Shown here in pieces: positions 25,127 to 46,702 of a stretch of DNA of 64,000 nt; the first letter of the stretch is position 1, and the number at the start of each line of letters is the position of its first letter. The translations under genes and the position numbers were made by a program. The notes below the pieces were generated by a model. It did no database searches. It was not told where the DNA came from and saw only the letters and a list, made by a program, of their open reading frames with translations. The stretch is from a virus: positions 2,808 to 66,807 of the IMG/VR virus record IMGVR_UViG_3300005748_000026; one strand, given 5' to 3'.

Positions 25127-25357
25127 CTATTTATATGTTTTTGCGTATGAAATATCATTCATTACTCAAATTATATGCGATAACGTATGAAATGTCATTC
25201 ATAACGGTTTGTATAAGATTTGAAGCGGATTAAACGCACGAACCAAACGATTAAAAACAGAATTAAATAAATAATATTAACCAATGAAAAAGCAATTACA
25301 CCGCTTTTAATTTTATATGGTGTTACCATTAGTTTTTTCGATAAATCACAAACAAAA

Positions 25358-25639
25358 ATGAATATACCTTTAATAATCAAAGAAATTAAAAAACTGTTAC
25401 CTAAAGATACTCGCGAGTATTCGGATTATAAAAAATGGAAAGCATATTGCACTTTCTATGGAAGTGATGAAGATGGTTATTTTGACTTATATTTTAGGGA
25501 AACTTTGTGCGGTAGGCAAACCATTGAAATAGCGAGACAAACCGATAACCCAATGAAGTACGTAGAAATGATTAAAGAAATAGACCAAAAAGCGGTTATT
25601 CTTTATTATAAAACTACACAAATAGAAGTTACTGCCTAA
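25358..25639 (+). CDS. cassette A1 hypothetical protein
   Basis: 93-aa ORF filling the cassette body. Confidence 0.7.
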   Translation: MNIPLIIKEIKKLLPKDTREYSDYKKWKAYCTFYGSDEDGYFDLYFRETLCGRQTIEIARQTDNPMKYVEMIKEIDQKAVILYYKTTQIEVTA

Positions 25640-25728
25640 TTAATGGTAACGTAGCGGCTATGAATTGCGAAGCGAAGCGGAGTTGTTTATAGCTAATGTT
25701 AGTAATAATTATTTTAAAAAAAAATGTA

Positions 25729-26610
25729 ATGGATAAGAAAATAATTGGATGGTGGTCTGGTGGAATAACATCAGCCGTAGCTTGTAAAATATCTATAGAA
25801 TTGTATGGTAAAGATAATGTTAAGGTTATTTTTATTGATACAAGAAACGAAGACGATGATACTTACAGGTTTATGAAGGATTGTTCTGAATGGTACGGTT
25901 TACATATAGAAACAATAAGTAGTGATAAACACGATAGCATTCAAGATGTATGGTTGAAATACAAGGCTTTGAATAATGCGAATGGTGCTGTTTGTAGTTC
26001 TGAAATGAAAAGAAGGGTTAGAGAAACTTGGGAAAAAAATAACGAATGGGAGCATCAAGTTTTTGGCTTTGAGTTAGATGAATACAAGAGAGCTAAAGGG
26101 ATGGTATTAAATCATCCTCACACGAAACCTATATTTCCGTTGATGATGTTTGGGATGAATAAAAAACAGTGTATTGATATAGTTTCAGAAGCAGGAATAA
26201 CACCTCCAAGAATGTATCAATTAGGTTTTTTAAATAATAACTGTTTTAAAACAGGATGCGTTCAAGGGGGAATAGGTTACTGGCAAAAGATGGGTAGAGA
26301 TTTTCCAGATAAGTTTGATAAAATGGCTGAAATGGAGCATAAGCTGACTGATGAAAAAGGAAGCCCTGTTACAATGTTAAAAGACCAAAGTAAAGAAGCG
26401 AAAGATGCTGTAAGTGAGAGTGGCAATAAATGGTCTCAATTTGTTTTCTTGAAACCGCATCCAGATTACCCTAATATTAAAGATATATCTATGATGAAAG
26501 GGAGAGAACCTAAACCTTTATTTGAGTGTAATGGTTTATGCGGAATAAATGACCTTGAAAAAAGAAGTGATACTGAGAGTGAGATAAATATGCAGCGTAC
26601 GCTATTTTAA
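25729..26610 (+). CDS. cassette A2 PAPS-reductase-family (PP-loop) protein
   Basis: WWSGGITSA PP-loop; CS.EMK and NNCFKTGCV Cys motifs; ATG at 25729. Confidence 0.75.
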   Translation: MDKKIIGWWSGGITSAVACKISIELYGKDNVKVIFIDTRNEDDDTYRFMKDCSEWYGLHIETISSDKHDSIQDVWLKYKALNNANGAVCSSEMKRRVRETWEKNNEWEHQVFGFELDEYKRAKGMVLNHPHTKPIFPLMMFGMNKKQCIDIVSEAGITPPRMYQLGFLNNNCFKTGCVQGGIGYWQKMGRDFPDKFDKMAEMEHKLTDEKGSPVTMLKDQSKEAKDAVSESGNKWSQFVFLKPHPDYPNIKDISMMKGREPKPLFECNGLCGINDLEKRSDTESEINMQRTLF

Positions 26611-26757
26611 TTATTACTAACGGCTAAGTATATGAAGCGGTGGCGATTAATAGCTAATAGATTGCCGACACGCTTAAACTAAATTAAATAGCTAAAAGTG
26701 GTTAAATAGACGTACAACGCCACTGATTTATATACAATGTTGTGCGCAGTTATTATT

Positions 26758-27123
26758 ATGAATATTTCACTTACGTTATGTGATAAAAAATTAAATGGTG
26801 ACATACCTAATTATCAATTTAAAAATGTTTTAAAAGGCGAAAACTTAAACGAAGCGCAAGAACTTTTTTATCACTGGTTAGAAGGCAAAGACTTAGAAAA
26901 AAGCGTCTTAGTTTGCTTTGAAAATATTAGAGAATTACCAAACGAACAATTAAGGAATGAGCAAAAATCAATTTTAGTTAGCCATAACTGGGATGATATT
27001 ACAGATTTTTGTGAAAAGCATTTAGATGGAAATGCAGATTATGATATTGATTTTGCGGTGTTTGAGTTTAGCGATTATCAAGACGCTTTTAGTTATTGCA
27101 AAGACCTTAGGGAAAGTTTCTAA
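26758..27123 (+). CDS. cassette A3 hypothetical protein
   Basis: ORF filling the cassette body. Confidence 0.7.
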   Translation: MNISLTLCDKKLNGDIPNYQFKNVLKGENLNEAQELFYHWLEGKDLEKSVLVCFENIRELPNEQLRNEQKSILVSHNWDDITDFCEKHLDGNADYDIDFAVFEFSDYQDAFSYCKDLRESF

Positions 27124-27233
27124 TTGCGCACAACGGCTAGGCTATGCGTATGTGCCGTTAAACCATGCGCTTAAATTTATAACAAGACCTTACAAGTCAT
27201 TACGTATAGCCATTGTTAGGCACTTTTAAAATT

Positions 27234-27404
27234 ATGGAAATATATAAAATAGACTTTGAAAGTAATTACAACGATGGAGGCGATAAAGAATGCTTTTTTA
27301 TAGTAAAAGACTTTAAGGAATTAATGGACGATTTAATTGAAAATACAGATTTAGATAATGTAACAATCAAAAGCATTATTTTTTTAGGCAGGAAATATAA
27401 TTAA
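27234..27404 (+). CDS. cassette A4 small hypothetical protein
   Basis: 56-aa ORF in the cassette body. Confidence 0.6.
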   Translation: MEIYKIDFESNYNDGGDKECFFIVKDFKELMDDLIENTDLDNVTIKSIIFLGRKYN

Positions 27405-27559
27405 CAATTTTAATTGTGCCTAACGTTTCGATGGTATGAAATGTAGGCGATATAGAGTAATACCCTTTCAAATTACACAGGCGTTAATTGGTGCTAAAAG
27501 GCTGACATCACCACTAAACCGCCTATATTTTATACCATGTGTTAGCCACCGTTTTTATT

Positions 27560-27751
27560 ATGATGACAATAAACTTGAACATAAAAGCAAATGTAAATAA
27601 CCTATCTCTTTCGCAGATTTACGAACTGTTGCAAAAATACAGCCTTGAAAAAGTGAAAGACCAAAAAGTTTATGAGTTTAACGGCTATAAATTCCAAATT
27701 GAAACAGAAATAAATATGGCTATAAATTATGTGATTACCGAGCTTCCTTAA
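27560..27751 (+). CDS. cassette A5 small hypothetical protein
   Basis: 63-aa ORF in the cassette body. Confidence 0.6.
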   Translation: MMTINLNIKANVNNLSLSQIYELLQKYSLEKVKDQKVYEFNGYKFQIETEINMAINYVITELP

Positions 27752-27800
27752 ATGGTGGCTAACAACTGGCTATATGCACTTTTACCTATACGATAAACGA

Positions 27801-28016
27801 ATGAAAACACTACAAAAGAAATATAGAATTAAGTGGATTATTGAAGGGTATTCAATATCTGAATGTAACAAGATTTTCAACTCTAAAAATGGAAGGGAAT
27901 TAAAACAGTCTATGGTCAATTATTCAATAGGTTATTACCTTAATGGGAAATTCAGAACATTATCTTGGATTAAAAAGAATTGTAAAAAAGTAGAAAGAAT
28001 TAAATTACCATTTTAA
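27801..28016 (+). CDS. small protein, NUMOD4-like
   Basis: IEGYSISECNKIFNSKNGRELK resembles NUMOD4-type N-termini. Confidence 0.45.
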   Translation: MKTLQKKYRIKWIIEGYSISECNKIFNSKNGRELKQSMVNYSIGYYLNGKFRTLSWIKKNCKKVERIKLPF

Positions 28017-29848: not shown

Positions 29849-30400
29849 GACCTAAAAAAGTGACAGTATTTTATTCTGTTGGTGTGATGTTGTTAGATGT
29901 GTTGATATTGTTGGGGTTGAGTGGTGGTTTCTGGTGGGTTATTAGCTTGTTTTGTGGTGTTTTGTGTGTTGGTTGGGTTGTGGGGTTATTCTCCTTCTTA
30001 ATTCTATTCCCTTGACTGTTATTTTTGTTTGGTTTCTCCCTTGCTTTTTTAGTGGGGTGTTTTATTGTTTTGCTTTCCTTGTTTATTACTTTCTTATGTA
30101 CTGGTTTTATTTGTTGGTGTGGTGTCCTGCTAATTAATTTCACTTCCTTGCCTGTTGTTTTCGCTTGGTTTGTTTTGGTTGGGTTGGTTACTTGTTTTTT
30201 GTTCCGCTATGTTTGTTTATTGTCTTTTCTTTTTAGTTGTTTCTCTTTCTGATGTGGTGTGTTGGTTGTCATTCCTGTTTGGCTTCCTATTTGGTTGGTT
30301 GGTTGGTCGGTTGGCCGGTTGGCTTGTGTGCTTTTATCTTATTCCTGTTACTTCTTATTTACCTGTATTGTTCTTTGCTTACCTTTCTGTTGTGGCATCT

Positions 30401-30482
30401 TGCTAACTTTATTAGCACATTACTAAACATATTAGCAGCCTTTTTAACTAACTATTTTAGCATTTTGCTAACGTAATTAGTT
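30401..30482. promoter_or_regulatory. four tandem 17-bp palindromic operators/iterons (nnCTAA-N5-TTAGnn)
   Basis: copies start at 30401, 30421, 30446 and 30466. Confidence 0.7.
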
Positions 30483-30754
30483 TTTTCAATTTTCTTTGTT
30501 TTGCTCAACCCGTTGGTATTATTAGGATGTAGCACTATTCAGTTAATTCTTAGCGTTATTTATATTGATTCTTAATAGTTTTATTCGGTATTTAGCACCG
30601 TCAAACGATAACAACCAACGCGTTATCAACTGACCAGATGCTTGACAACCTGTGATTCAAGCCCACGTGTGAGCCACGTATAAAGCTCTGGAAGTTGAAG
30701 TCCCAGTAAGTCGCACTTCGCACAGTCCTGCAAAAGACATAGCAGTTAGGTGAA

Positions 30755-30818
30755 TGTTTATTAATGCAGCCGCAATAATGCGATAGTTACAAGCCTATTA
30801 AATGCAGAGTAGTAAACA
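30755..30818 (+). ncRNA. twister ribozyme (type P1)
   Basis: P1 TGTTTAT/GTAAACA, TAA, P2 TGCA/TGCA, GC, P3 CGCA/TGCG, P4 ATAG/CTAT with loop TTACAAGC, then GAGT (T1 pseudoknot AC/GT). Confidence 0.85.
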
Positions 30819-30848
30819 ATTTTATTATTAACCTATAAATTTAAAACA

Positions 30849-31094
30849 ATGGACATCGTAAATTTAAACAACGGTATTGATGGAAATCCTAGAAAAGCTA
30901 TTCACTTTTTAGAATTTACAAAGGAAATAGGCGAAGACTTTACAACAGCTTTAAACAGAGCTAAACAATTTCAAAGCACTGCAAAAGCTTACAGGGGCAA
31001 AAAATATGGAGGCATGATTGTATTTACAGACCTTTGGATGAGCAAAAGTCAAATTGAAGAGGCTATTAATGGATTTATGAGTAACTGTGAATAA
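30849..31094 (+). CDS. early-region hypothetical protein
   Basis: 81 aa, A-rich leader. Confidence 0.7.
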   Translation: MDIVNLNNGIDGNPRKAIHFLEFTKEIGEDFTTALNRAKQFQSTAKAYRGKKYGGMIVFTDLWMSKSQIEEAINGFMSNCE

Positions 31095-31117
31095 CAAGGT
31101 GTGGCATCTTGCCAAAA

Positions 31118-31171
31118 GTAATACTGAAGAGGCTTCACTAGCCGAAACCTAGCTTTTGCTAGGTCTATTAC
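31118..31171 (+). ncRNA. hammerhead ribozyme type I (HH1)
   Basis: GTAATA-CTGAAGA-GGCT(TCACT)AGCC-GAAA-CCTAGC(TTTT)GCTAGG-TC-TATTAC. Confidence 0.92.
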
Positions 31172-31192
31172 AAACTTAAAAACTAAAGCAAA

Positions 31193-31348
31193 ATGGACGA
31201 AATTAAAGAAAGATTTGAAATATTCGAGGAAATAGAAAGAGACCAATATTCTACTGTTTTTGAAGCATATGACAAAATTAAAAAATGCTATTGCTATTTA
31301 GAATTACCAAACATAAAAACAAGCTGGCAATTTGATGTTACATATTAA
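31193..31348 (+). CDS. small hypothetical protein (51 aa)
   Basis: translated by hand, MDEIKERFEIF...; A-rich leader after HH1. Confidence 0.6.
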   Translation: MDEIKERFEIFEEIERDQYSTVFEAYDKIKKCYCYLELPNIKTSWQFDVTY

Positions 31349-31383
31349 CTATTTACCTATAAATTTTAAAAAAACTAAACAAT

Positions 31384-31617
31384 ATGAAAACAACTGAACC
31401 AATTTACAACGGATACAGCATAAGACAGATACTAAACAACTTTCCTGAAACCTTTAGCAGTGCCGAAAAAAGGTTTTATATAAAAAACTGCATCGAAGTT
31501 AACCGGATTGAAAAAAGCGGGCTAAACAGGCACTTATTGGAGGGATTAAGGAATTTTAATTTTGCAATGATTAGAAGACACTACGAAATGAACAAAAGTA
31601 ATACTGATGAGGATTAA
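31384..31617 (+). CDS. hypothetical protein
   Basis: 77 aa; the 3' end overlaps HH2. Confidence 0.6.
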   Translation: MKTTEPIYNGYSIRQILNNFPETFSSAEKRFYIKNCIEVNRIEKSGLNRHLLEGLRNFNFAMIRRHYEMNKSNTDED

Positions 31618-31652
31618 ATATCCGAAACTGGGCGCAATGCTCAGTCTATTAC
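31598..31652 (+). ncRNA. hammerhead ribozyme type I (HH2)
   Basis: GTAATA-CTGATGA-GGAT(TAAAT)ATCC-GAAA-CTGGGC(GCAAT)GCTCAG-TC-TATTAC. Confidence 0.92.
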
Positions 31653-31671
31653 AATTTAAAACTTAAACAAC

Positions 31672-31905
31672 ATGGAATTTACAATCGAACTTGGTGCAAA
31701 CGAAAAAGTCTTTTTAATAACTACTAGCACAGGCAAAAGCCAATTTTGCAACTTACTAGATATACCTTACATGATTGAGAAATTAGGAACAACGGAAGGT
31801 TATTACAAGGTATTTCATTTCTGGAACAACAAAATGAGAGTAGCAAGTGTAAAATACATTAATGAAATGCTTAAAGCTGCTGGAGTTAATGAAGTAATTT
31901 ATTAA
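31672..31905 (+). CDS. hypothetical protein
   Basis: 77 aa, A-rich leader. Confidence 0.65.
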   Translation: MEFTIELGANEKVFLITTSTGKSQFCNLLDIPYMIEKLGTTEGYYKVFHFWNNKMRVASVKYINEMLKAAGVNEVIY

Positions 31906-31945
31906 TCTGGTGGGGTGTGTTGCCTCACCAAAAAAACTAAACAAT

Positions 31946-32146
31946 ATGAAAACTTTAGCAAAAATACACAAAGAAGAAATTACAAAAATGATTAAAGATA
32001 ACGAGCCTGTAAGATGCTTCAAAGCATATTGCAAAGGAGCTGGATTTGACACAGATAGTTACTCTAGTCCAATCCATATTTCAGAAGACGGGAAATTAAC
32101 AATGAGATATAGAACTATTAACACCTACCACTATATTAGATTGTAG
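31946..32146 (+). CDS. hypothetical protein
   Basis: ATG at 31946 after an A-rich leader. Confidence 0.6.
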   Translation: MKTLAKIHKEEITKMIKDNEPVRCFKAYCKGAGFDTDSYSSPIHISEDGKLTMRYRTINTYHYIRL

Positions 32147-32198
32147 TGGTTTTATAAGTACAAGAAACAATGAAAGACTTAATAAATAACATAAAACG

Positions 32199-32516
32199 AT
32201 GACAACAGCAGAATTAAATACAAAGATAGAAGAAGGAACTAAAAAACATGGTAGCAAAAATGCTTATTTATGTTCGATTGAATATCAAATGGCATATAGA
32301 AAATGGCAAAGAGCAGATAATAGCAATACCGTAAAAAAAGAAGTTAAGGAAGTAGAGATATTGAAACGTGAAGATGGATATGTTGTAAGTTTTGGCAACA
32401 ATAGGTATTTAGCGCATACTGGAACTGGTTTTGGTATGCTTGCTGGAATGAGTATTTTTAAAACATATATACAAGCTAAAAAAGTATGTAACGATTTAAA
32501 TTATAAAGTAAAATAA
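32199..32516 (+). CDS. hypothetical protein
   Basis: 105 aa. Confidence 0.65.
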   Translation: MTTAELNTKIEEGTKKHGSKNAYLCSIEYQMAYRKWQRADNSNTVKKEVKEVEILKREDGYVVSFGNNRYLAHTGTGFGMLAGMSIFKTYIQAKKVCNDLNYKVK

Positions 32517-32556
32517 TAAGGTGGGGCATATTGCCTCATCAAAAAATCAAAACAAC

Positions 32557-32706
32557 ATGAAACGAATCTACAAAATGACCTTAGAGCAAATCTATTTAGA
32601 GTACGTAAACAATTATTTAACAGTAGCTAAAATGGCTGAACATTACGGGATAGATGAAAGCCTATTAAATAGCTTAATAAATGAAGTTAGACCATCTAAA
32701 AACTAA
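32557..32706 (+). CDS. small HTH-like protein
   Basis: YLEYVNNYLTVAKMAEHYGI. Confidence 0.55.
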   Translation: MKRIYKMTLEQIYLEYVNNYLTVAKMAEHYGIDESLLNSLINEVRPSKN

Positions 32707-32711
32707 ACAAC

Positions 32712-32936
32712 ATGAACAAAGAAAAATTAAACCTACTCCCAAACAAATGCACTCTGGAAGAATTAAGCGAAGCTATTAAAAAGCTAAAGCAAGTTGAAGC
32801 AATCATAAATACATTTGACGAAAATGAGCCGATGTACTCAGAATGTATAAGAATTGATAACGAACTGAGCGTATTAGGTTTCTCAATAGAATATGGATTA
32901 TGTGGAACAATAACGGATTTAATAAAGATAGCATGA
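32712..32936 (+). CDS. hypothetical protein
   Basis: 74 aa. Confidence 0.6.
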   Translation: MNKEKLNLLPNKCTLEELSEAIKKLKQVEAIINTFDENEPMYSECIRIDNELSVLGFSIEYGLCGTITDLIKIA

Positions 32937-33088
32937 AAAATTTAAAAAGAATACTAGCGGCAATATGCGCTATAATAGCAATACTTTGTTTAGTCTTCCT
33001 TATGGATGCGGATAATGACAAAGAGACAATAACTGGAGTAATCCTATTTAATGTATATACTCTAATGGGGTATTTTTTAATCAAATAA
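32933..33088 (+). CDS. small membrane protein (two TM segments)
   Basis: two hydrophobic segments; 4-bp overlap with the previous ORF. Confidence 0.55.
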   Translation: MKNLKRILAAICAIIAILCLVFLMDADNDKETITGVILFNVYTLMGYFLIK

Positions 33089-33130
33089 GGTGTGGCATCT
33101 TGCCCACCTCCACCCAATGAACAGGTGTTA

Positions 33131-33537: not shown

Positions 33538-33732
33538 ATGAAAGTGAGAGAAATATTTGAAGAGAAAATTAAGATTGAGAAGATTGAGAAAGGTATTGGA
33601 GGGTTGGTGGAAATAACAGCCAACACACCATACCAGAGCATTAATATATCATGCTCAAAATCCTACTTAAACTTACTTACAAAAGAATTTTTAGGTAAAA
33701 AGGTGAATGATTTGAAAATATACAAAGGGTAA
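33538..33732 (+). CDS. hypothetical protein
   Basis: its TAA stop forms the first TAAC of array B. Confidence 0.55.
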   Translation: MKVREIFEEKIKIEKIEKGIGGLVEITANTPYQSINISCSKSYLNLLTKEFLGKKVNDLKIYKG

Positions 33733-33842
33733 CGAAAACATATAAGATACGTTGCCTTTTTCGGCAATGGATTTTATACAGTGTTAGCAGTATGTATTTT
33801 TAAACTTTTTGAGCGTAGGATTTAATAACAAAAAAATATAAA

Positions 33843-34250
33843 ATGAAAGTATTTGTAGCAGAAATAAGAGAAAAAGGAAACTACTCGCCAACCGATTACC
33901 ATTGGTGTGATGACAATGATTTGCTTATGTTCGGGCAGTTTCAGTTAGGAAATGGAAACCCGTCAGAAGTAGCGATGTGTGGTATTCAAAGCAGGAAGTT
34001 TACAACCCATATTTTGGTAAAGGACTTAAAAATTGATAAAGACTTTTATCGTGAGTTAATTACTGAAAGTGTAGAAAAAGCAATGGGTTGTACTATTGAC
34101 AGAAATGGTGATTATGAAATTGAGATGGGTTTCTCGCATCATTTTAACATCTACGATATTATGAATGAATTACTTGAAAAAGCAAATCATTTTGAAGATG
34201 GTGAAAAAGTGAAATGCTTTGGTAGAACGCTGAGTGCGGTGGCAGTTTAA
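33843..34250 (+). CDS. cassette B1 hypothetical protein
   Basis: 135 aa, fills the cassette body. Confidence 0.75.
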   Translation: MKVFVAEIREKGNYSPTDYHWCDDNDLLMFGQFQLGNGNPSEVAMCGIQSRKFTTHILVKDLKIDKDFYRELITESVEKAMGCTIDRNGDYEIEMGFSHHFNIYDIMNELLEKANHFEDGEKVKCFGRTLSAVAV

Positions 34251-34383
34251 AAATATTACTGCTAACGATTTGTATATGGTGTGTAGCCGAAGCACCAAAA
34301 TTATTCGGTTAAAAACAAAACATTAATAGGCTATACATTATATACTTTGTTATATTTTAGTGCGGTTAATTAAAAACAGAATT

Positions 34384-34611
34384 ATGAAAAATATAGAGAT
34401 TAAACCAAGAGAAAATGAGAGCAGAAAAGATTATTTAATTAGAGTAGCTGTTGCTTATTTAAAAGAAGTTGACCATACGGGGCAGTTTCAAACAAACTAC
34501 CCTGACACAATTAAATATGATGATGCAGATTGTGATGGGTGTTGTTTAGCTGATGACTTAGAAAATGAGTTTTCTCATATAGAATTTGATGACTTAACAG
34601 GCGAGTGGTAG
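34384..34611 (+). CDS. cassette B2 hypothetical protein
   Basis: YDDADCDGCCLADD motif. Confidence 0.7.
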   Translation: MKNIEIKPRENESRKDYLIRVAVAYLKEVDHTGQFQTNYPDTIKYDDADCDGCCLADDLENEFSHIEFDDLTGEW

Positions 34612-34679
34612 CATTAAATATAACGATTTGTATATGGTTAGTATTACCATTGAATTATAAACGAATTAAATAAATAAAG

Positions 34680-34901
34680 ATGAAAAATATATTAAAAACA
34701 GAAGATTTTAAAGAAGAAGGAATATTAACTATATACGGTGTTATGGGTATGTTGCCTGATGCCGAAAAAGTTGATGAATTGGCTGAAAAATGGTGTGATG
34801 AAAATGCGGAATCTTGGAATGCACAAAACTCTGCTTACATAGCTGGTATGACTGATTTAATTGAAGCAATAAAAGAACTTGGCAAACTAAACAGGTACTA
34901 A
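34680..34901 (+). CDS. cassette B3 hypothetical protein (starts in hairpin loop)
   Basis: ORF reads through the GTT at 34740. Confidence 0.65.
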   Translation: MKNILKTEDFKEEGILTIYGVMGMLPDAEKVDELAEKWCDENAESWNAQNSAYIAGMTDLIEAIKELGKLNRY

Positions 34902-34984
34902 GGCAATTACCCATAACGTATATGGTATGGTGACGTTGCGACCTTATAGCACGAACTTAATTAATAATTACAAAACTTTGAATT

Positions 34985-35281
34985 ATGAATACAGATAGAA
35001 AAAAAACAGAAACCAAGCAATGCACTATACCAAGTGTTAGCGGTAGTTTTATTTTTGATAAGAACTTAATTGAAAGAGCAATGACTGCTGACAAGCCTTA
35101 TTATGCGATAGGTGTTGATACTTATGACAAAAGTAATCTTGCTTATTGCCTTACCCGAAAAATAGATGGTGTGATTGAGGTATTACTATCTAAAACAATG
35201 AGAGACGAAACTGAATTTAAGCAAGATGTTGAAACACTCGCAAAGTGCTTTGAAGCAGATGTATTTACAAGTGGTGACTAA
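34985..35281 (+). CDS. cassette B4 hypothetical protein (starts in hairpin loop)
   Basis: ORF reads through the GTT at 35036 (QCTIPSVSGS). Confidence 0.7.
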   Translation: MNTDRKKTETKQCTIPSVSGSFIFDKNLIERAMTADKPYYAIGVDTYDKSNLAYCLTRKIDGVIEVLLSKTMRDETEFKQDVETLAKCFEADVFTSGD

Positions 35282-35587: not shown

Positions 35588-35646
35588 TATTGCGCACAAC
35601 GGTTTAGCTATGCACCGTAAAGCATAGCGTATGGTGTATAGGTGTT

Positions 35647-37065: not shown

Positions 37066-37070
37066 AAATT

Positions 37071-37172
37071 ATGGCATCAATTATAGGAACAACATTCGCT
37101 TTAATGGCTTTTTGCTTTATCTTAATAACTATTGGTGTGGTGTGTTTCACACTATTAGACCGAGATGAATAG
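37071..37172 (+). CDS. small membrane peptide (33 aa)
   Basis: MASIIGTTFALMAFCFILITIGVVCFTLLDRDE. Confidence 0.45.
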   Translation: MASIIGTTFALMAFCFILITIGVVCFTLLDRDE

Positions 37173-37194
37173 TATATTTGTAAAAACAATTATC

Positions 37195-37407
37195 ATGGAA
37201 AGAAAAGATTACACAGGAGGAAAGAACTTCTTCCAATGGGTTTTAGCCCAAAAGAAATTAGCAGCAGGTGGAGTAATTATACTTCCTTTACTAGCATTAG
37301 TAATGGGATTCCCACTAGAAGCTCTTATCCTAAGTTCAATGACCATCATAACATTTGTTATGCTAGTGTCTCAGTATCGAAAACTTAAAAGAGGATTTAG
37401 AGAATGA
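37195..37407 (+). CDS. small membrane protein
   Basis: two hydrophobic segments; TATATTTG promoter at 37173. Confidence 0.6.
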   Translation: MERKDYTGGKNFFQWVLAQKKLAAGGVIILPLLALVMGFPLEALILSSMTIITFVMLVSQYRKLKRGFRE

Positions 37408-37913
37408 GATATACTATTAGAAAGGGGAGGAACTATTCTTCCCCTATTTTAGCTAAGATTAGAGGTTTTTTTGGTGTGGCATCTTGGAATGTATCATTCA
37501 AAATACCTACTAACTTCAATGTAGCTCAAGAAGATGCTATAAGTAAATTATGGGGAGTTTCCTTAAATGGATACCACCACAAAAACTCTTATAGAATAGG
37601 CATAAGACCTTATTCATCTAACTTAGCTCAACTATACCACTATTCATATCAAAATGGAGAAAGAATATACAAGCCATTTGGAGTTGTTCTTCTTGGTAAA
37701 AAGTATAAGATGAATGTATCCATTAAAAATGGTATGGTAACTATTAAAACTATCGAAGGTAACATTGACCCGATACCAGAGGGAGGTTCTAAATTCCCAA
37801 TCAAAGTGGATAGGATTAAATATGGATATTACCTATATCCTTATCATGGTGGTGAGGACAAAGCAAAAGAAACTATGAAATTTGATTTGAAAATATGCTC
37901 TATCAGAAAGTAA
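37404..37913 (+). CDS. hypothetical protein (possible beta-sandwich fold)
   Basis: 169 aa, aromatic and beta-rich, YLYPYHGG. Confidence 0.55.
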   Translation: MRYTIRKGRNYSSPILAKIRGFFGVASWNVSFKIPTNFNVAQEDAISKLWGVSLNGYHHKNSYRIGIRPYSSNLAQLYHYSYQNGERIYKPFGVVLLGKKYKMNVSIKNGMVTIKTIEGNIDPIPEGGSKFPIKVDRIKYGYYLYPYHGGEDKAKETMKFDLKICSIRK

Positions 37914-38275
37914 AGAAAATAATAGAGTCTTCAAAAGAGGACAATATAAAAGACCACAAAGAAAAGAATCTAGTAAACAAATATGTTTTTGTCTCTTACT
38001 TTGATACGGTAATTTTTGATTTTGTTACTGTTACAATATCTAAAGGGAATACTTATAAAACTGAGGTGGAAATATATTGTCCTAAAACTAATTTTAAAAC
38101 AAGAGGTGTGGCAGACTGCATGATTATGAGGCAATCTGTTCACACCGCTTTTGAATATGCAGGAGTCAAGTTCCTTAGACCTGTATTAGCAAGTCAAAAA
38201 GGAATTGAAGATGCTGTAGCTGCTATTGCTAAAAAACTAAAGCACACAAAACTCCACACCGTAAAGTTACTCTAG
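37895..38275 (+). CDS. hypothetical protein
   Basis: 126 aa; last plus-strand gene before the convergence point. Confidence 0.6.
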   Translation: MLYQKVKKIIESSKEDNIKDHKEKNLVNKYVFVSYFDTVIFDFVTVTISKGNTYKTEVEIYCPKTNFKTRGVADCMIMRQSVHTAFEYAGVKFLRPVLASQKGIEDAVAAIAKKLKHTKLHTVKLL

Positions 38276-38599
38276 TATATACTTATCAAATATATGCTTA
38301 TAGTCTTTATCTAAGGCAAAAGGTATTTCCACTCCTTTTCTTTTTAATTCTTCATGGGTGTGGAGTATTGTTAAAGCAAATCTAGCTAACTCTTCATCAG
38401 CTACCTTAAAACAATTAACCAACCTTTTCATCTCTTGTAACTTATACTCTCTCTTATTAAAGTCTGATTGGCTTAACAACCTTTGATTCAACTTACCCTG
38501 TATAGTCTCCCAAGACTTCTGAATCTTATACTCAAACTTTAGTATCTCTTGACTTAAAGATGTTGTGTCAATATTTCGTTGACTTTCCGTTACTCCCAT
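38267..38599 (-). CDS. hypothetical protein
   Basis: 110 aa. Confidence 0.55.
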   Translation of the reverse strand: MGVTESQRNIDTTSLSQEILKFEYKIQKSWETIQGKLNQRLLSQSDFNKREYKLQEMKRLVNCFKVADEELARFALTILHTHEELKRKGVEIPFALDKDYKHIFDKYILE

Positions 38600-38822
38600 T
38601 TCTTGCTCTGTTTTTAGATTTGTTCTCTAATACATATCCACCAGACTTAGTATGACTTACATCATCACCACCTTTGCCCATAACACCCCTCTTCCTACGC
38701 TCCTTATTTAGTTGCGCTCTATATTTACGTCTCTTAGCTGTGCTATGGTACTTCTTATCGTAGGCAGCTTTCTTTTTCCTAGCCTCTGGATTCTCTTTAT
38801 AATATTTCGCTGATTTCTTCAT
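38568..38822 (-). CDS. small basic protein, degenerate HNH-like
   Basis: GGDDVSHTKSGG...KNRARNG. Confidence 0.55.
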   Translation of the reverse strand: MKKSAKYYKENPEARKKKAAYDKKYHSTAKRRKYRAQLNKERRKRGVMGKGGDDVSHTKSGGYVLENKSKNRARNGSNGKSTKY

Positions 38823-38834
38823 CTAACAAAGATA

Positions 38835-39977
38835 CTACTTAACAGCAAAATACTCTCTAGCTCTATGCTCATCCTTCCTTTTAAATACTACCTCTCCTTC
38901 TTCTCCATACTCTTCCCAATTCATTCTTTGATTATCCTTTAAGGCTTGGAGTAGCTTGTTTTTTAGCTCAGACTTCTTGTTGCGCATCTGAGTTTCTAAA
39001 TCTTTCACCTCAATATACTCGTTCCTAATTTTCAATGTATCTAAGTCTCCTTGAATAACAGACTCTTCTTCAATATTCTTCCACTTATCTTTTAAGAACT
39101 TCTCTTCATTCTCACCGCCTTGTGCTATTGGCTCGTTAGAGTAAATTCTACTCATAATCTCAGCTCTAATATCAGCGTCTTCATTCTCATCATACAAGCT
39201 ATAAAGCTCTCTGCATAATTGTACGTTATCCCAAAATTCTTTCGCTTTTAATAACACCTCAGCTACATCATCCTCTGTAATAGTTACAGATTGAACCTTA
39301 AACTCTCTCTCTACTAAGTATGCTATTTCTCCATAGTCTACCTCCATTACTATACATTGCTCCTTTATCTGGTCAAAGTAGTTTGGCGGAAGTCCTGCTT
39401 CGTACATATCTGATACTATCTTTTTGATAGCCTTACACTCTACAGGGAATGGGTGTGGTATGTTGCTTCCTGTAAATGGGCTTTCTTGATTACCATGAGC
39501 CATGTAGTCAATAGACGCGGATAAGTAAGGGAATTTAGTGTTTACCGCAAAGCAATTAATGTTACGTAACTTTCTTACTTCAACACTATTTACAATGTTA
39601 TCTATCCAAGACTCCACACCATCATAATGCTCCCAATACTTTCCAATTATAGGCTCTGCAAATCTTCCGTATATAGTATCTGCATTATTGAATTGAGGTG
39701 GTATCTCTTTAAACACTTTCTCATGCCATACTTTTAGAGTAGAACCATACTTATTATTCCCAAGTACTGTACCTATCTCAGAACTTCCAATTACTTCTGT
39801 TCTAAAGTCAAGCCAATCATAATTAATGTTATTTGTACCTTCTATAAATTGAGGGATGTAAAATCCCCATACTGTACCTTTAATTCTCTTTGCATATCCT
39901 GAGAATCTTTCTAAGTGTGATAATTCTTCTGGTAGTTTCATAATATTTAGGTATTTACCCCAAGTTATTTGTGACAC
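38835..39977 (-). CDS. YqaJ/lambda-exonuclease-family recombination nuclease
   Basis: WL.FR...IGSSEIG.VLG, YLSASID, VECK, then Q. Confidence 0.85.
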   Translation of the reverse strand: MSQITWGKYLNIMKLPEELSHLERFSGYAKRIKGTVWGFYIPQFIEGTNNINYDWLDFRTEVIGSSEIGTVLGNNKYGSTLKVWHEKVFKEIPPQFNNADTIYGRFAEPIIGKYWEHYDGVESWIDNIVNSVEVRKLRNINCFAVNTKFPYLSASIDYMAHGNQESPFTGSNIPHPFPVECKAIKKIVSDMYEAGLPPNYFDQIKEQCIVMEVDYGEIAYLVEREFKVQSVTITEDDVAEVLLKAKEFWDNVQLCRELYSLYDENEDADIRAEIMSRIYSNEPIAQGGENEEKFLKDKWKNIEEESVIQGDLDTLKIRNEYIEVKDLETQMRNKKSELKNKLLQALKDNQRMNWEEYGEEGEVVFKRKDEHRAREYFAVK

Positions 39978-40002
39978 TTGGGAGTTTTAATGTTCTTTCG
40001 TA

Positions 40003-40046
40003 TTGATTATCAATTAGTTATAGTAGGTGTAATATATATGTTAGTT
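40003..40046 (-). other. attI-like site, copy 2
   Basis: exact reverse complement of 36186-36229; abuts array C. Confidence 0.8.
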
Positions 40047-40048
40047 AT

Positions 40049-40438
40049 CTACAAGGCTAACTTTGTGCTATCATAAAGAATATTTCCCAACTTAATACAA
40101 AAACGCACTTCATCATCTGCACCCCATTCTTTATTTCCTTTACCAATTCTTATTCCATCAAATTCAACTACCATTGTAGGTGCGTTTTTTGCGTAACCGT
40201 TTTTAAAAACAATTTTATCATAAGGTATAAAGGCGTGGAATGGCTCTTGTAAACTCATATCTTTTAATCGCTTAATCCAGTAGTCTTTTATTTCTCTATA
40301 TTCTTCTTTCTTCACGCCTTTTGAAATCATATCGAACCATTGTTTTTTAAGGGTCATGTGTAAAATCCGCCCAGTAGATAACAATGTATATAATTCAGGC
40401 TGTGCATCTGCTTTTTTATAATCTTCTGTACTTATCAT
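40049..40438 (-). CDS. cassette C1 ASCH/PUA-like domain protein
   Basis: LHMTLKKQWFDMI.KG.KKEEYRE...YW..RL ... F.NGY. Confidence 0.75.
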   Translation of the reverse strand: MISTEDYKKADAQPELYTLLSTGRILHMTLKKQWFDMISKGVKKEEYREIKDYWIKRLKDMSLQEPFHAFIPYDKIVFKNGYAKNAPTMVVEFDGIRIGKGNKEWGADDEVRFCIKLGNILYDSTKLAL

Positions 40439-40508
40439 AGTTTTGTATTTATCTGTTATTTAATGGCTTTAAAAACGCCCGAAATCATATACTCAACGTT
40501 ACCCACCA

Positions 40509-40715
40509 TTAGAGTCCCTGTTCTAAGGCGAGTTTGGCAGCTTCACCCTCTTTGAGCATTTTCTTTAATCCTTTAAGGTCGTCTTGCCACGCATGGTCAG
40601 ATTGATACTCGCCACTTGCTTTATGCTTTCCATTTATAGTAATACTATAATCGAATGTGTAGTACCATTGGTCGGTATCTATGTTTGTAATCTCTACTTC
40701 TATTGTTGTTTTCAT
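40509..40715 (-). CDS. cassette C2 hypothetical protein
   Basis: 68 aa, fills the cassette body. Confidence 0.7.
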   Translation of the reverse strand: MKTTIEVEITNIDTDQWYYTFDYSITINGKHKASGEYQSDHAWQDDLKGLKKMLKEGEAAKLALEQGL

Positions 40716-40798
40716 TTCTTAAATTTTAACGGTGGGTAACACTATATAAAAACAAGTTCGTACCTCACCAGATTTTTATACTCAACGTTGTGTGTAAT

Positions 40799-40885
40799 AG
40801 GTGGGGATTGGATTCGAACCAATGCAAGTACCAACCATTTTTCAGGTCATTCCTACCACAGGTCAATTACGGTAAACGCCCACCT
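40799..40885 (-). ncRNA. cassette C3: tRNA-like RNA
   Basis: minus strand AGGTGGG...ATTGG-TTCGAAT-CCAAT-CCCCACCT; D and anticodon regions are irregular. Confidence 0.55.
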
Positions 40886-40931
40886 ACTACTAAGCCTTTC
40901 GGCACACAACAAAAGCTATAAATAATAAATA

Positions 40932-41081
40932 TTACTTACCATTTTTGTAAATAAAATGCAGAAGCAACCAACCAAAGGCATATCCCTTTATAACATCTTT
41001 GTCCCATTTTGTACCAACACTAGCCCAATATGGTAGTATACTTATTTGTGGTTTTAATTCTAAATAAAATCTAACTTTCAT
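40932..41081 (-). CDS. 49-aa ORF nested inside an attC-like loop
   Basis: translated by hand: MKVRFYLELKPQISILPYWASVGTKWDKDVIKGYAFGWLLLHFIYKNGK. Confidence 0.5.
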   Translation of the reverse strand: MKVRFYLELKPQISILPYWASVGTKWDKDVIKGYAFGWLLLHFIYKNGK

Positions 41082-41133
41082 ATTTCGTAATTTTTAAAAT
41101 TCATAGCCAAATACGTTGTAGGCAATAGCCTTG

Positions 41134-41382
41134 CTAAAGTTCTTCACCGCATTTAAGACATTTGTTTATTTCCCCATTGCATTTACTCATTACCGAAGCA
41201 AAAGGGTGTTCGCAAGGCAACTGTTCGCTTTGCCCTACAACACTGTGTAAACGTAATTGCTCAAGCATATAATCGTAAGCAGTATCGTTTATTTGTTGTC
41301 GCTTTTCTATTGGTACTTCTGCTAAATCAAATAGCTGTGCTAATATTCCAATCGCTTGTTTTTCTAATTTGTTTTTATCCAT
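41134..41382 (-). CDS. cassette C4 hypothetical protein with C-terminal Cys cluster
   Basis: starts in the hairpin loop and reads through the site (LRLHSVVGQSEQL); CEH...C....CLKC. Confidence 0.65.
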   Translation of the reverse strand: MDKNKLEKQAIGILAQLFDLAEVPIEKRQQINDTAYDYMLEQLRLHSVVGQSEQLPCEHPFASVMSKCNGEINKCLKCGEEL

Positions 41383-41429
41383 AATATTCGTTTTTAATGT
41401 CGGTCAAAAACTACCCATATCTGTTTACG

Positions 41430-41684
41430 TTAATCAGATAGTTCTTTAGCTTTATTCTCATACCACTTAGCCTTTTCTAAATCTCTCTCTATAGGTTGGT
41501 GTGGCTTGTTTCCTAATCTAAGTCTATACTTAAATGCACACATCTCACAATGGGCTATGAACTTATCCTTTCCCCATACCTTTAACATCATTTCCCAAAC
41601 TTCTATACTTGAGTTCTTGTAATGCTCTGGATTGACATAATCATAGTTCTCACTATCAATATTCCTTGACATGAAATCTCCCAT
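41430..41684 (-). CDS. DUF3310 (SaV-like) protein
   Basis: VNPEHY..., AFKY..R.G.K....DLEKA.WY. Confidence 0.8.
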   Translation of the reverse strand: MGDFMSRNIDSENYDYVNPEHYKNSSIEVWEMMLKVWGKDKFIAHCEMCAFKYRLRLGNKPHQPIERDLEKAKWYENKAKELSD

Positions 41685-41685
41685 A

Positions 41686-44740: not shown

Positions 44741-45326
44741 AAGCTAGTAATGTTCTGTTATCAACTCTCCAATAATGCTCTCCCTCTACTAATATATCGT
44801 AGTTAGGATGAGAACCGAAGTAACACTTATCTCCTGACTCTACTCCTTCCTCTTCCATTTCTGGGCTTGGGTGTGCCATGTTGCCATACTCCATTATATA
44901 CTCAGGCTTGTTTTCAACACCAACAATTCCACTATCACTTTCATAAATCTCTCTTTTAATAGGCTTAATCAAGTTCCAATTAGGCATAGTTATCAACTCA
45001 CCATCTCTAACTATGCAATATACAGAAGCACCTCTTATTTCATATAGAGTTTCGTTGTCAAACACTATTTGTTGGTCTTCTCTCAATCCATTATGAGTGA
45101 AATAGACCTTATCTCCTTCTTTAATTTGTGGTATCTTGGCTGTAGGATATTTTACAATACCAAATTGCCTTACGTACTTGTAATTAAATGGGTCAAATTT
45201 AGTGTCTATAACTAAATCTATCTCATTACCATCTTCGCCTTTTATTGAAACAGTATCGTTACGCTCTTTATCTACGTCAACGTATATGTATCCATTGATT
45301 GCTCTGAAATTCTCTGTTGTATTCAT
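44727..45326 (-). CDS. tandem GroES-like protein
   Basis: two GroES-like repeats (IKEGDKVYF; ESDSGIV..VESGDKCYF). Confidence 0.6.
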   Translation of the reverse strand: MNTTENFRAINGYIYVDVDKERNDTVSIKGEDGNEIDLVIDTKFDPFNYKYVRQFGIVKYPTAKIPQIKEGDKVYFTHNGLREDQQIVFDNETLYEIRGASVYCIVRDGELITMPNWNLIKPIKREIYESDSGIVGVENKPEYIMEYGNMAHPSPEMEEEGVESGDKCYFGSHPNYDILVEGEHYWRVDNRTLLAFEKA

Positions 45327-45363
45327 AACTTATTTTAGCTGCAATTTAAAAATAATATTCTAT

Positions 45364-45834
45364 CTACGAAAATCTATGTGACTTTTCTCTAAAATATCTA
45401 GCCCTAGTTTCTACTTGTATTTTTTTATCTAAATGTGTACCTATCTCTTGCCCTACTTCTATTGGGTCGTATCCTAACTTTAAATACTTTACAATGTCTT
45501 GCCCCTCATTATCTAAATACTTCTTCAACAACTCTACTTCCTCTCTCTTTTGTTGCCTTGTTAATTCGTATAATTCGGTGTCGGAGTCTGGGGTTAATGT
45601 TTCTTTATGTTGTGGTATGTTGCTTGCATACAAAGTACTATCCCACTCCCATTGATTTAAAACAGAAGTAGCTTCTTCTTCAATATCACACCACACCAGA
45701 TAGTCCTCGCAGTCAACTTTAATTACATTTCCATTCTGCACATGAACATCTAAGTCTAATGTATTACCATTAACATCAAACTTTACTGAGAAAACTTTAG
45801 TTGTAGTTTTTAGTATGTCAGATATTATTCTCAT
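45364..45834 (-). CDS. hypothetical protein
   Basis: 156 aa. Confidence 0.6.
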   Translation of the reverse strand: MRIISDILKTTTKVFSVKFDVNGNTLDLDVHVQNGNVIKVDCEDYLVWCDIEEEATSVLNQWEWDSTLYASNIPQHKETLTPDSDTELYELTRQQKREEVELLKKYLDNEGQDIVKYLKLGYDPIEVGQEIGTHLDKKIQVETRARYFREKSHRFS

Positions 45835-46319
45835 CGTATTTGCTTGCTTGTTGGTGATTTTTTTGTTGGCTTCTTCAACTCCATCATTCTTTTTACATCA
45901 GCCCTATAGTCTGTTGTGTAATATTTCTGGTTAATATACTTGGATAAACTAGCAGGCTCAGGAACGAAAGAACCTTCTTCCTTTTTAAGCTCTCTATACT
46001 TTAACTCAATAGCGTAGACTTTCCTTAGATGTGGAACTACCTTACTATAGTCTTTAATCTTCTTTTTAAGATTACTCCACTCTACATCTAATCCTCTCTT
46101 TGTTCCAATATACATTAGTCTGAATAAATTAAACTCTTGTTTAAGTTCTGATTCATTAGTCTCTTCTGTTTTAACGAATCCATATTTAGTTAGCTTAAAT
46201 GTTCCCTCAGAACTTACCCATTCATTATTTCCCATATCCATCATACCTAGATGTTGGGCTAAGTCTAAATAGCATTTGTTTTCGTACATGGTGTGGTGTG
46301 TTAAAATTAGAAAGCTCAA
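45831..46319 (-). CDS. putative replication-initiator-like protein
   Basis: F..F..MY..TKRG ... FVPEPASLSKYINQKYY resembles replisome-organiser C-termini; start uncertain. Confidence 0.45.
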   Translation of the reverse strand: MSFLILTHHTMYENKCYLDLAQHLGMMDMGNNEWVSSEGTFKLTKYGFVKTEETNESELKQEFNLFRLMYIGTKRGLDVEWSNLKKKIKDYSKVVPHLRKVYAIELKYRELKKEEGSFVPEPASLSKYINQKYYTTDYRADVKRMMELKKPTKKSPTSKQIR

Positions 46320-46352
46320 GAGTTAACTTTCTAAAATAAATATGTTAAATAC

Positions 46353-46396
46353 TTGATAGTTAGTTGGTTGGATTAGATGCACTATATATGTTAGTT
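46353..46396 (-). other. attI-like site, copy 3 (diverged)
   Basis: 33/44 ungapped identity to copy 1, first 14 nt identical. Confidence 0.75.
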
Positions 46397-46702
46397 AGTG
46401 GCAATTAAAATGACTAGCTACTACCTACGCCATATTTGGTATGCAGTTTTTTTGCTGCGTATATTTCTTGTTTTTGCTTTTCAGATATTTTTCTGTAAAA
46501 CGTTGAACGGTTTATACCAAATTTGGCTAAAGCATCACTTATATTCCATCCTTCTTCAACTAATTTAAGTATCGAAGAATAACTGCCACTAACACTATGT
46601 AAAGTGCATTGCGTAGTAGTTTTGTTTTTGTTTTTGCTCATAATATTTAAGTTTTATTCTTTGTTTAACATTGGTGCAGCAACGCACCTTACATTCAACG
46701 TT
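46394..46702 (-). mobile_element. integron-like array D (single cassette)
   Basis: GTTAGTGGCA 46394/TGCCACTAAC 46593; hairpin arms ATGTAAAGTGCATTGC/GCAACGCACCTTACAT ending at GTT 46700-46702. Confidence 0.85.
46414..46641 (-). CDS. cassette D1 HTH protein
   Basis: WNISDALAKFGINRSTFYRK; starts in the hairpin loop. Confidence 0.7.
   Translation of the reverse strand: MSKNKNKTTTQCTLHSVSGSYSSILKLVEEGWNISDALAKFGINRSTFYRKISEKQKQEIYAAKKLHTKYGVGSS

Follow-up and report, generated by a model that had tools for sequence, protein, structure and literature searches.

Introduction

Integrons are genetic platforms in which gene cassettes are captured one at a time, and they are defined by one special integrase, IntI, together with an attI site and arrays of attC-bounded cassettes. 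IntI is a tyrosine recombinase that carries an additional domain between patches II and III, which in integrons reads the extrahelical bases of the folded attC site. The attC sites are imperfect palindromes whose outer boxes (GTTRRRY / RYYYAAC) belong half to one cassette and half to the next, so that the start of each cassette complements its own end. Cassette ORFs are mostly promoterless, co-oriented away from intI and read from the promoter Pc, and cassettes are inserted at the attI site adjacent to the integrase gene.

Integron parts have already been reported in phages. Qi et al. 2023 (PMC9892861) described attC clusters without IntI (CALINs) in virulent phages, including one around two methyltransferase genes in the Polaribacter phage P12002L, for which two sites are given, one of them recombined by IntI1 according to the paper. 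Xer-family recombinases, in turn, act on a folded single-stranded hairpin during CTX phage integration, while Xer-flanked pdif modules are described for Acinetobacter plasmids (PMC7399989).

Here, we analysed a 64,000-nt stretch (the window; positions 2,808 to 66,807 of the IMG/VR record IMGVR_UViG_3300005748_000026) of a marine flavobacterial phage carrying four rows of small gene cassettes that are joined by folded-hairpin sites. Three of the rows end at an attI-like site, one copy of which precedes a Xer-like tyrosine recombinase gene, and the whole looks like a phage-built counterpart of the bacterial integron. In our literature searches, no description of such a recombinase-headed system was found.

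Organization of the cassette arrays

The 17 units reside in arrays A (25203–27763, 5 units), B (33731–36188, 7 units), C (40044–41431, 4 units, minus strand) and D (46394–46702, 1 unit, minus strand). Each unit has a body with its own GTT…/…AAC inverted ends (R boxes), preceded by an imperfect hairpin. The individual features are as follows.

25206–25650 (+), cassette A1: hairpin 25206–25321 plus body 25322–25650 (93-aa ORF); R ends GTTACCATTA/TAATGGTAAC; covariance model hit at 25192–25335
25651–26621 (+), cassette A2: 47-nt hairpin plus body 25698–26621 with 14/14 matching ends; PAPS-reductase-like protein (PF01507, phrog_424)
26622–27134 (+), cassette A3: body 26739–27134 (128-aa ORF); R boxes the same as those of B5, cargo unrelated to B5
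27135–27424 (+), cassette A4: body 27215–27424; 14-nt R boxes identical to those of the P12002L methyltransferase cassette
27425–27763 (+), cassette A5: body 27541–27763; last unit of array A
27764–27810 (+), end of array A: only weak likeness to the attI-like site in an alignment
33734–34266 (+), cassette B1: body 33783–34266; DUF7715 protein
34267–34624 (+), cassette B2: body 34349–34624
34625–34917 (+), cassette B3: body 34740–34917; the ORF 34680–34901 starts inside the hairpin
34918–35293 (+), cassette B4: body 35036–35293; hairpin and R' 89% identical to a cassette of the Polaribacter phage Freya whose cargo is unrelated
35294–35600 (+), cassette B5: body 35374–35600
35601–35848 (+), cassette B6: non-coding body 35647–35848 with tRNA-like arms
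35849–36188 (+), cassette B7: body 36026–36188; the ORF 35897–36187 starts inside the hairpin
36189–36240 (+), attI-like site next to the recombinase gene; perfect 45-nt copy 36185–36229
36241–37065 (+), Xer-like tyrosine recombinase, 274 aa
40003–40043 (−), second attI-like site, an inverted copy, at the end of array C
40044–40497 (−), array C cassette nearest the attI-like site: body 40044–40382, ORF 40049–40438 (phrog_625); shared with Cellulophaga phage phi19:1 gp040
40498–40786 (−), array C cassette: body 40498–40740 (68-aa ORF)
40787–41114 (−), array C cassette: tRNA-like body 40787–40910; the 204-nt hairpin loop holds a 49-aa ORF (40932–41081)
41115–41428 (−), first cassette of array C: body 41115–41241; the ORF 41134–41382 starts inside the hairpin
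46353–46393 (−), third attI-like site, at the end of array D (76% like the C copy)
46394–46699 (−), cassette D1: body 46394–46593; 75-aa HTH protein; hairpin of the same type as that of B4

The coordinates of the four arrays, the mostly unit-specific terminal repeats and the recombinase gene following array B agree with the original prediction, whose observation is confirmed. The two shared repeat pairs that it had named are also present, A3 and B5 sharing GTTGTGCGCA, and B6 and 40787–40910 sharing GTTGTGTG.

Pairing and covariation of the sites

Perfect GTT…/…AAC inverted repeats of at least 10 bp spanning 80–1000 bp number 11 in the window, against 2.08 ± 1.38 (max 7) in 200 dinucleotide shuffles, and all 11 lie inside the four arrays. 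At 9 bp or more, the count is 20 against 7.82, but since the highest shuffle also reached 20, that cut-off alone is not significant; furthermore, among the 64 possible 3-nt anchors, AAA also gave 11. Extended to 14 nt, the body ends match at 9–14 of 14 positions. Each body end pairs with its own start (mean −11.5 kcal/mol), and not with the starts of the other units (−4.18) or with the start of the next unit (−4.16, n = 13); the cognate partner ranks first in 16 of 17 units, and 0 of 20,000 permutations reach the observed sum. The hallmark of integron cassettes that each start complements its own end is, hence, present.

The hairpin arms between the units also pair in a unit-specific way (−11.05 against −5.35 kcal/mol, cognate first in 14 of 17, 0 of 20,000 permutations). 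On a MAFFT alignment, a 10-pair helix is 91.1% paired, against 65.6% in shuffles (0/500) and 28–53% when slid, and has 44 doubly changed cells against 16.4 (0/500), while the count of pairs with a change on both sides (7 against 6.3, 230/500) is not significant. The site of the circular form folds better on the sense strand in 16 of 17 units (mean 3.8 kcal/mol, Wilcoxon p = 3e-5), with a G.T pair in the arm helix in 14 of 17 and at R position 11 in 10 of 17.

A covariance model of the hairpin sites had been proposed in advance as a way to probe the prediction. Built on the window's sites, the model (R1) finds no other site in the window and 27 sites in other phage loci, all in gene orientation. 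However, it found nothing in P12002L, although the same site type is visible there by eye, and did not list the tail arrays of two whole-genome loci (L003 and L004), which match those of locus L012. Rfam gave no match at gathering score in the window; the published attC covariance model (IntegronFinder / HattCI) was not applied to these sites.

The recombinase and the attI-like site

The intact recombinase contains the SAM-like N-terminal domain (PF13495) and the catalytic domain (PF00589) of Xer-type enzymes, and R133, K158, H222, R225, H248 and Y258 are invariant in two alignments. The alignment to VchIntIA (2a3v) breaks between query 174/202 and chain 176/247, so about 43 residues are absent, while the alignment to XerA (5hxy) is continuous. 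TIGR02249 scores 131.5 bits in two stretches against a cut-off of 265; the best family is XerA_Arch at 188.2 bits against 220, and all curated Xer models score below their cut-offs. Since the enzyme is Xer-like and lacks the IntI-specific insertion, this is not a true integron.

The 14-mer AACTAACATATATA occurs three times in the 66.8-kb genome, each time at the end of an array (B, C and D), and the B and C copies are identical over 45 nt; one copy lies 52 nt upstream of the recombinase gene. In contrast, array A has no clear attI-like end. In 8 of 9 recombinase genes at 36–40% identity (from phage contigs and Flavobacterium, Chitinophagaceae and Segetibacter assemblies), AAC followed by TATAT lies 48–52 nt before the start codon; the ninth, at locus L006, has AAC at 51 nt without TATAT. 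Locus L005 also has cassettes upstream whose ends coincide with model R1 hits. Insertion at the corresponding site was seen only in Freya and not in the present phage, which leaves undecided whether the site acts as a genuine attI.

Cassette variation in related systems

Gain, loss or re-ordering of cassettes exactly at the AAC/GTT boundaries in related phages had been named beforehand as a comparison to make, with a fixed gene order, or indels ending elsewhere, counting against the prediction. For the present phage, no close relative was found and no sequencing run was listed, while contigs encoding recombinases 45–56% identical were not examined, so that activity here is inferred. The Polaribacter phages Freya and Danklef, however, have the same layout, and there the comparison came out in favour of cassette exchange. 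Freya_1 to _10 are 100% identical in their flanks and differ by whole cassettes, with every breakpoint lying exactly after AAC. Six different cassette ends join the same attI-like site directly after AAC, about 50 nt before the integrase, and Freya_8 lacks one internal 902-bp cassette, from AAC to AAC. Danklef and Freya_10 share a 1164-bp two-gene cassette at 99.6% identity, with homology stopping at AAC on both sides, different neighbours and a different order. It has to be considered that the Freya integrase is only 28% identical to the window's enzyme and that its attI-like site differs. In the window itself, the cassette at 40044–40497 is shared with phi19:1 from AAC|G to the cassette end.

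Interpretation

We interpret these loci as arrays of mobile gene cassettes that are maintained by site-specific recombination of folded single-stranded hairpin sites, working like an integron but built on a short Xer-like recombinase; we assign this reading a probability of roughly 0.75. In this view, each cassette is a hairpin segment, which starts with G after AAC, has imperfect arms and a loop that often carries the start of the gene, followed by a cargo body, of which the first 14 nt (GTT-N7-RTTW) complement the last 14 nt (WAAY-N7-AAC). In a free circular cassette, body end, hairpin and body start would form one continuous attC-like stem. The recombinase is proposed to exchange strands in or at AAC, between such a folded site and the attI-like site, which would result in insertion or excision of whole cassettes at the gene-downstream end of each array. 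Our data demonstrate the anatomy, the covariation, the strand bias, the link between this recombinase clade and the attI-like site, and the cassette-exact indels and re-ordering in the Freya/Danklef phages, while it is by inference that the phage's own recombinase does the reaction, that the substrate is single-stranded DNA, and that circles exist. Given the lack of the IntI insertion, the means by which the enzyme would choose a folded strand is unknown.

The original prediction, according to which a crAss-like phage captures and shuffles accessory cassettes at several loci with one integrase, is thus supported in part. Its core, namely cassettes bounded by attC-like folded sites and served by one phage recombinase at several loci, fits every structural test that we ran as well as the natural variation in the Freya/Danklef phages. 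Besides the points on integron membership and on activity made above, it needs correction in that the cassette is hairpin plus body with the crossover at the AAC end, so that the ORFs run opposite to those of usual integron cassettes, and in that integron parts in phages are already in print. The crAss-like affiliation was not established; the large terminase is only about 35% identical to Flavobacterium and Cellulophaga phage terminases, and the 2156-aa ORF matched no PHROG.

Other explanations are considered unlikely. The hairpins and the gene-spanning complementary ends might act in RNA, as processing, stabilising or translation-control structures of the phage transcripts, e.g., RNase III-type stems bracketing each message, so that the cassette-like pattern would be selected pairing. 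The fixed sense-strand orientation, the conserved G.U-type pairs and the overlap of hairpins with start codons would fit such a role, which could still be an added function; however, it explains neither the whole-cassette indels ending exactly at AAC beside an integrase in Freya, nor the same cassette in different neighbourhoods, nor the attI-like site kept at a fixed distance from the recombinase genes. About equally unlikely is that the arrays are inherited relics, assembled elsewhere in other phages or in host chromosomes with their own enzyme, and that the recombinase is an ordinary lysogeny integrase merely sitting next to one array. This would be in line with the fact that no variation could be observed for this phage, with Danklef keeping arrays with a truncated integrase, and with Bartlau et al. 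2021 (PMC8776804) reading the Freya integrase as a sign of a temperate lifestyle. It is at odds with three copies of the attI-like site, each exactly at an array end, with the spacing of AAC-TATAT to the start codon conserved across the clade, with the intact catalytic residues, and with the Freya isolates varying only at the integrase-proximal position.

Least likely, the units are MITE-like transposable elements, or modules exchanged by homologous or microhomology-mediated recombination at conserved intergenic linkers, with no dedicated recombinase. The bodies do have terminal inverted repeats, many MITEs are reported to be shared between Flavobacteriales and their phages (PMC11602168), and some junctions share 9–11 nt, such as those of the Freya cassettes 76 and 78. 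However, the 7-nt cores of the inverted ends differ from unit to unit, so there is no common transposase site, no target-site duplications flank the units, most Freya junctions share only AAC, and six different cassettes join one fixed site.

A further-reaching reading, which we regard as only slightly more probable than not, is that of a complete, self-contained integron analogue that arose from a Xer-like recombinase independently of IntI and lives in Bacteroidota phages and chromosomes, with one enzyme serving several attI-like sites per genome. The folded site would sit upstream of the cargo and supply its promoter, start codon and first residues; new cassettes could, therefore, be made by joining any gene fragment to a ready-made hairpin leader. 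Phages of different families would draw on one shared cassette pool (methylases, nucleases, tRNA-like RNAs and small unknown proteins) for counter-defence.

A parallel system with a different, simpler recombinase, native to lytic-type and temperate phages, would show that folded-hairpin cassette exchange evolved more than once or is much older than IntI. It would explain part of the accessory-gene mosaicism of marine flavobacterial phages, and would expose a cassette pool that standard integron surveys miss or log as orphan attC clusters. Because the hairpin carries the start of the gene, the system bears on the open question of how cassettes are made. The Freya isolates, differing only by cassettes, offer a ready laboratory model.

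Comparison with known systems

With integrons, the loci share arrays of cassettes whose starts complement their own ends around GTT/AAC, and junction sites that are imperfect hairpins with R- and L-type boxes and an asymmetric central spacer. When the array is read from the other strand, an attI-like site lies next to a divergently placed tyrosine recombinase, and new or lost cassettes appear at the attI-proximal position in Freya, though insertion there was not seen in the present phage. The crossover falls in AAC on the strand that folds better, which corresponds to the integron bottom strand, and site types are shared by unrelated cargo, as with Vibrio chromosomal repeats. They differ in the 274-aa Xer/XerA-like recombinase without the roughly 43-residue insertion, in R boxes of 14 nt with a variable 7-nt core, in the presence of three attI-like copies and four arrays per genome, and in residing in a phage genome. 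Moreover, all ORFs face the attI-like site and the recombinase, and 6 of the 15 coding units start inside the hairpin, so that the site lies upstream of the gene.

The genome of P12002L, with its integrase-less attC cluster (PMC9892861), carries the same hairpin/R-box type, one R-box pair being identical to that of cassette A4, although it was not confirmed here that the two sites reported are the junctions that we read. That paper treats the sites as stray integron parts lacking an integrase, and describes no phage recombinase, no attI-like site and no reversed polarity. Finally, the Xer-based systems likewise involve Xer-family enzymes, one acting on a folded single-stranded hairpin and the other moving gene modules bounded by inverted sites; they use, however, the host XerC/D and one conserved dif-like sequence, and have no unit-specific arms, no arrays ending at an attI-like site, and no dedicated recombinase gene next to the array.

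Genome context and search for relatives

The window covers 64 kb of a 66,807-bp single-contig phage genome, which encodes a portal, a large terminase, virion proteins, DnaB, ThyX, MazG and a YqaJ-type nuclease. The terminase is about 35% identical to those of Flavobacterium "elemo" and Cellulophaga phages, and a short nucleotide match points to Cellulophaga and Polaribacter phages; the designation "crAss-like" used in the original prediction, however, was not established.

No close relative of this phage was found. A megablast search of 25000-46800 against 50,697 phage records gave only two short matches, and scans of IMG/VR with the recombinase, with DnaB and with a 13-protein alignment gave nothing above 40% identity. 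One metagenome scan yielded 44% identity at best, over a partial match, and one genome scan yielded 4 loci, 3 of them at 40% identity. The contigs encoding two recombinases of 45-56% identity (P0003 and P0022) were not examined, and no sequencing run was listed for 33600-40100; hence, reads were not analysed. Further features of the window are the following.

25131-25205: two tandem 35-nt copies, each holding a small palindrome, directly before the first AAC of array A
30246-33104 and 45120-47921: a motif of the form TGTGGCATCTTG / GGTGTGG, recurring about ten times on both strands near gene starts, which may be a phage promoter or regulator site
30758-30815 (+): a type-P1 twister ribozyme match (47.2 bits, E 8e-9), below Rfam's gathering score of 67.2, just upstream of the ORF at 30849
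31101-31170 and 31586-31651 (+): two weak hammerhead (RAGATH-1) matches (27.9 and 25.7 bits, E 0.06 and 0.18), well below the gathering score of 56.3, in near-repeated stretches
35647-35848 (+) and 40787-40910 (-): two non-coding cassettes with acceptor-stem and T-arm-like hairpins, which share R boxes (the outer inverted boxes of the body)
36189-40043: a 3.8-kb segment holding the recombinase and the YqaJ-type nuclease genes

For the two non-coding cassettes, a reading as tRNA genes was examined and rejected. ARAGORN found 0 genes; Rfam gave nothing for 35600-35900 and, for 40740-40960, only sub-threshold matches to tRNA-Sec (16.9 bits, E 0.57) and AdoCbl-II (20.9 bits, E 0.013). They are tRNA-like, not tRNA genes.

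Anatomy of the cassettes

The observation of four runs of units with GTT/AAC inverted ends, separated by imperfect hairpins, is confirmed, and the runs (arrays A to D) lie where they had been placed. Perfect GTT…/…AAC inverted repeats of at least 10 bp number 11, against 2.08 ± 1.38 (max 7) in 200 shuffles, and all 11 fall inside the arrays. The 9-bp cut-off alone is not significant, because one shuffle reached the observed 20, and the anchor AAA also gives 11 in this A+T-rich DNA. The repeat is really 14 nt in length, with GTT-N7-RTTW at the start of the body and WAAY-N7-AAC at its end, and 9-14 of 14 positions match. Each body end pairs with its own start (-11.5 kcal/mol), but not with the starts of other units (-4.18) or of the next unit (-4.16); none of 20,000 permutations reached the observed sum.

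The segment between two bodies always begins with G after AAC (17 of 17) and folds into an imperfect hairpin whose arms are also unit-specific (-11.05 against -5.35 kcal/mol; 0 of 20,000 permutations). On a MAFFT alignment of the 17 junctions, a 10-pair helix is 91.1% paired, compared with 65.6% in shuffles (0/500) and 28-53% in slid controls; since this helix was chosen from these same sequences, it is favoured over the slid controls. It has 44 doubly changed cells against 16.4 (0/500) and a G·T pair in 14 of 17. A strict search for perfect 7-nt hairpin arms found only 11 sites, most of them outside the arrays, and was dropped because the arms are imperfect. The covariance model of the 17 hairpins that had been proposed as a check was built on the alignment (model R1) and finds the 17 sites and nothing else in the window. 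It is narrow, however, giving 0 hits in Polaribacter phage P12002L and few in the bacterial loci (7 at E up to 1).

Array ends and the recombinase

Arrays B and C end in the same 45 nt, in inverted orientation, enclosing 36189-40043, whereas array D ends in a 76% similar copy. The perfect 45-nt inverted attI-like copies (94 nt at 80%) bound the 3.8-kb segment, and recombination between them would invert it. The 14-mer AACTAACATATATA occurs three times in the genome, exactly at the ends of B, C and D, while array A has no clear copy.

The B copy lies 52 nt before the gene of a 274-aa tyrosine recombinase with a SAM-like N-terminal domain and conserved R133, K158, H222, R225, H248 and Y258, whose best family matches are XerA, XerD and XerC. 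The alignment to the Vibrio integron integrase structure breaks where IntI has about 43 extra residues; a defining integron feature is, therefore, absent. Of nine genes for recombinases 36-40% identical, originating from five phage contigs, one metagenome contig and three Bacteroidota assemblies, eight have AAC followed by TATAT 48-52 nt before the start codon and the ninth has AAC at 51 nt, while a 27% identical gene has no such site. One IMG/VR contig (L005) also has four cassettes upstream, whose AAC ends coincide with model hits.

Cassette variation and sharing among phages

Whether related phages gain, lose or reorder cassettes exactly at the AAC/GTT boundaries had been named in advance as a test of the prediction, and the Polaribacter Freya and Danklef phages provide a natural experiment. 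The hairpin of cassette B4 is 89% identical to one in the Freya phages, which have the same layout of an array, a fixed site and a 271-aa integrase 28% identical to that of the window. The Freya isolates have 100% identical flanks and differ only by whole cassettes, the differences being +842, +902, +472 and +307 bp and a 4.1-kb block. Six different cassette ends abut the same site directly after AAC, and Freya_8 lacks one internal 902-bp cassette, from AAC to AAC. The 472-bp cassette unique to Freya_6/7 (positions 1-1000 of locus L013 and the end of locus L012 in Freya_6) carries a 71-aa ORF entirely inside its hairpin loop, plus a second ORF in the body.

Danklef phages share a 1164-bp two-gene cassette with Freya_10 at 99.6% identity; its homology stops at AAC on both sides, and its neighbours and order differ. 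The Danklef integrase is truncated: in Danklef_1 (locus L016, 7483-7870) it lacks its 5' half, and the break is preceded by a hairpin segment that also occurs after another cassette of the same array, suggesting an off-target cassette event that destroyed the gene. These comparisons place the crossover in or at AAC and define the cassette as hairpin plus body. The paper on the isolation of these phages does not mention any of this, with 0 occurrences of integron, cassette, hairpin or indel (Bartlau et al. 2021, PMC8776804).

The window cassette 40044-40497 matches gp040 of Cellulophaga phage phi19:1 (59% protein identity), with homology running from AAC|G to the cassette end and an unrelated upstream neighbour. 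Hairpin types recur with unrelated cargo, as in B4, D1 and Freya cassette 77, whose proteins align only over the 25 hairpin-encoded residues, and in A3 and B5; A4 and the P12002L methyltransferase cassette share identical 14-nt boxes. A second crossover point inside genes was considered; however, for B4 and Freya cassette 77, both 14-nt R boxes go with the hairpin and only the inner cargo differs, and we therefore read this as one site type with different cargo, without excluding the other view.

Proposed mechanism and alternative explanations

We propose recombinase-mediated exchange between a folded single-stranded site and the attI-like site, with circular cassette intermediates. The strand that folds better is the gene-sense strand, in 16 of 17 units (3.8 kcal/mol, p=3e-5). 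While the anatomy and the comparative indels rest on direct observation, and activity is shown in relatives, activity in this phage, the role of the enzyme, the single-stranded substrate and the circles are inferences.

Other explanations account for parts of the data. A role at the RNA level fits the strand bias and the G·U pairs, but not the DNA indels, and a relic array beside a lysogeny integrase is compatible with the lack of data for this phage, but not with the three attI-like copies or their fixed spacing. MITEs or linker-mediated homologous exchange, in turn, do not fit the unit-specific ends or the 3-nt junctions.

Relation to phage-borne attC clusters and integrons

In a screen of 10,705 phage genomes, Qi et al. 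2023 (PMC9892861) found 3 complete IntI integrons in temperate phages and 17 integrase-less attC clusters. One cluster, with two sites around the methyltransferases, is in Polaribacter phage P12002L, and one of those sites was recombined by IntI1. That genome carries the site type described here, although the coordinates of the published sites were not compared. Our literature searches found no account of a recombinase-headed cassette system in Bacteroidota phages.

The original interpretation, an integron-like system in which one phage recombinase serves several arrays, is partly supported, being largely right in mechanism but wrong in family. Read from the other strand, the layout is that of an integron: a recombinase gene pointing away, an attI-like site, then cassettes that each start with GTT and end with a hairpin. 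In that frame, the better-folding strand is the integron bottom strand, and the crossover in AAC matches the integron cleavage side. This integron-like system differs from integrons, besides the missing IntI residues of its recombinase, in that the ORFs face the recombinase, that 6 of the 15 coding units begin inside the hairpin, that two cassettes carry tRNA-like RNAs and that, in this view, three or four attachment sites are served by one gene.
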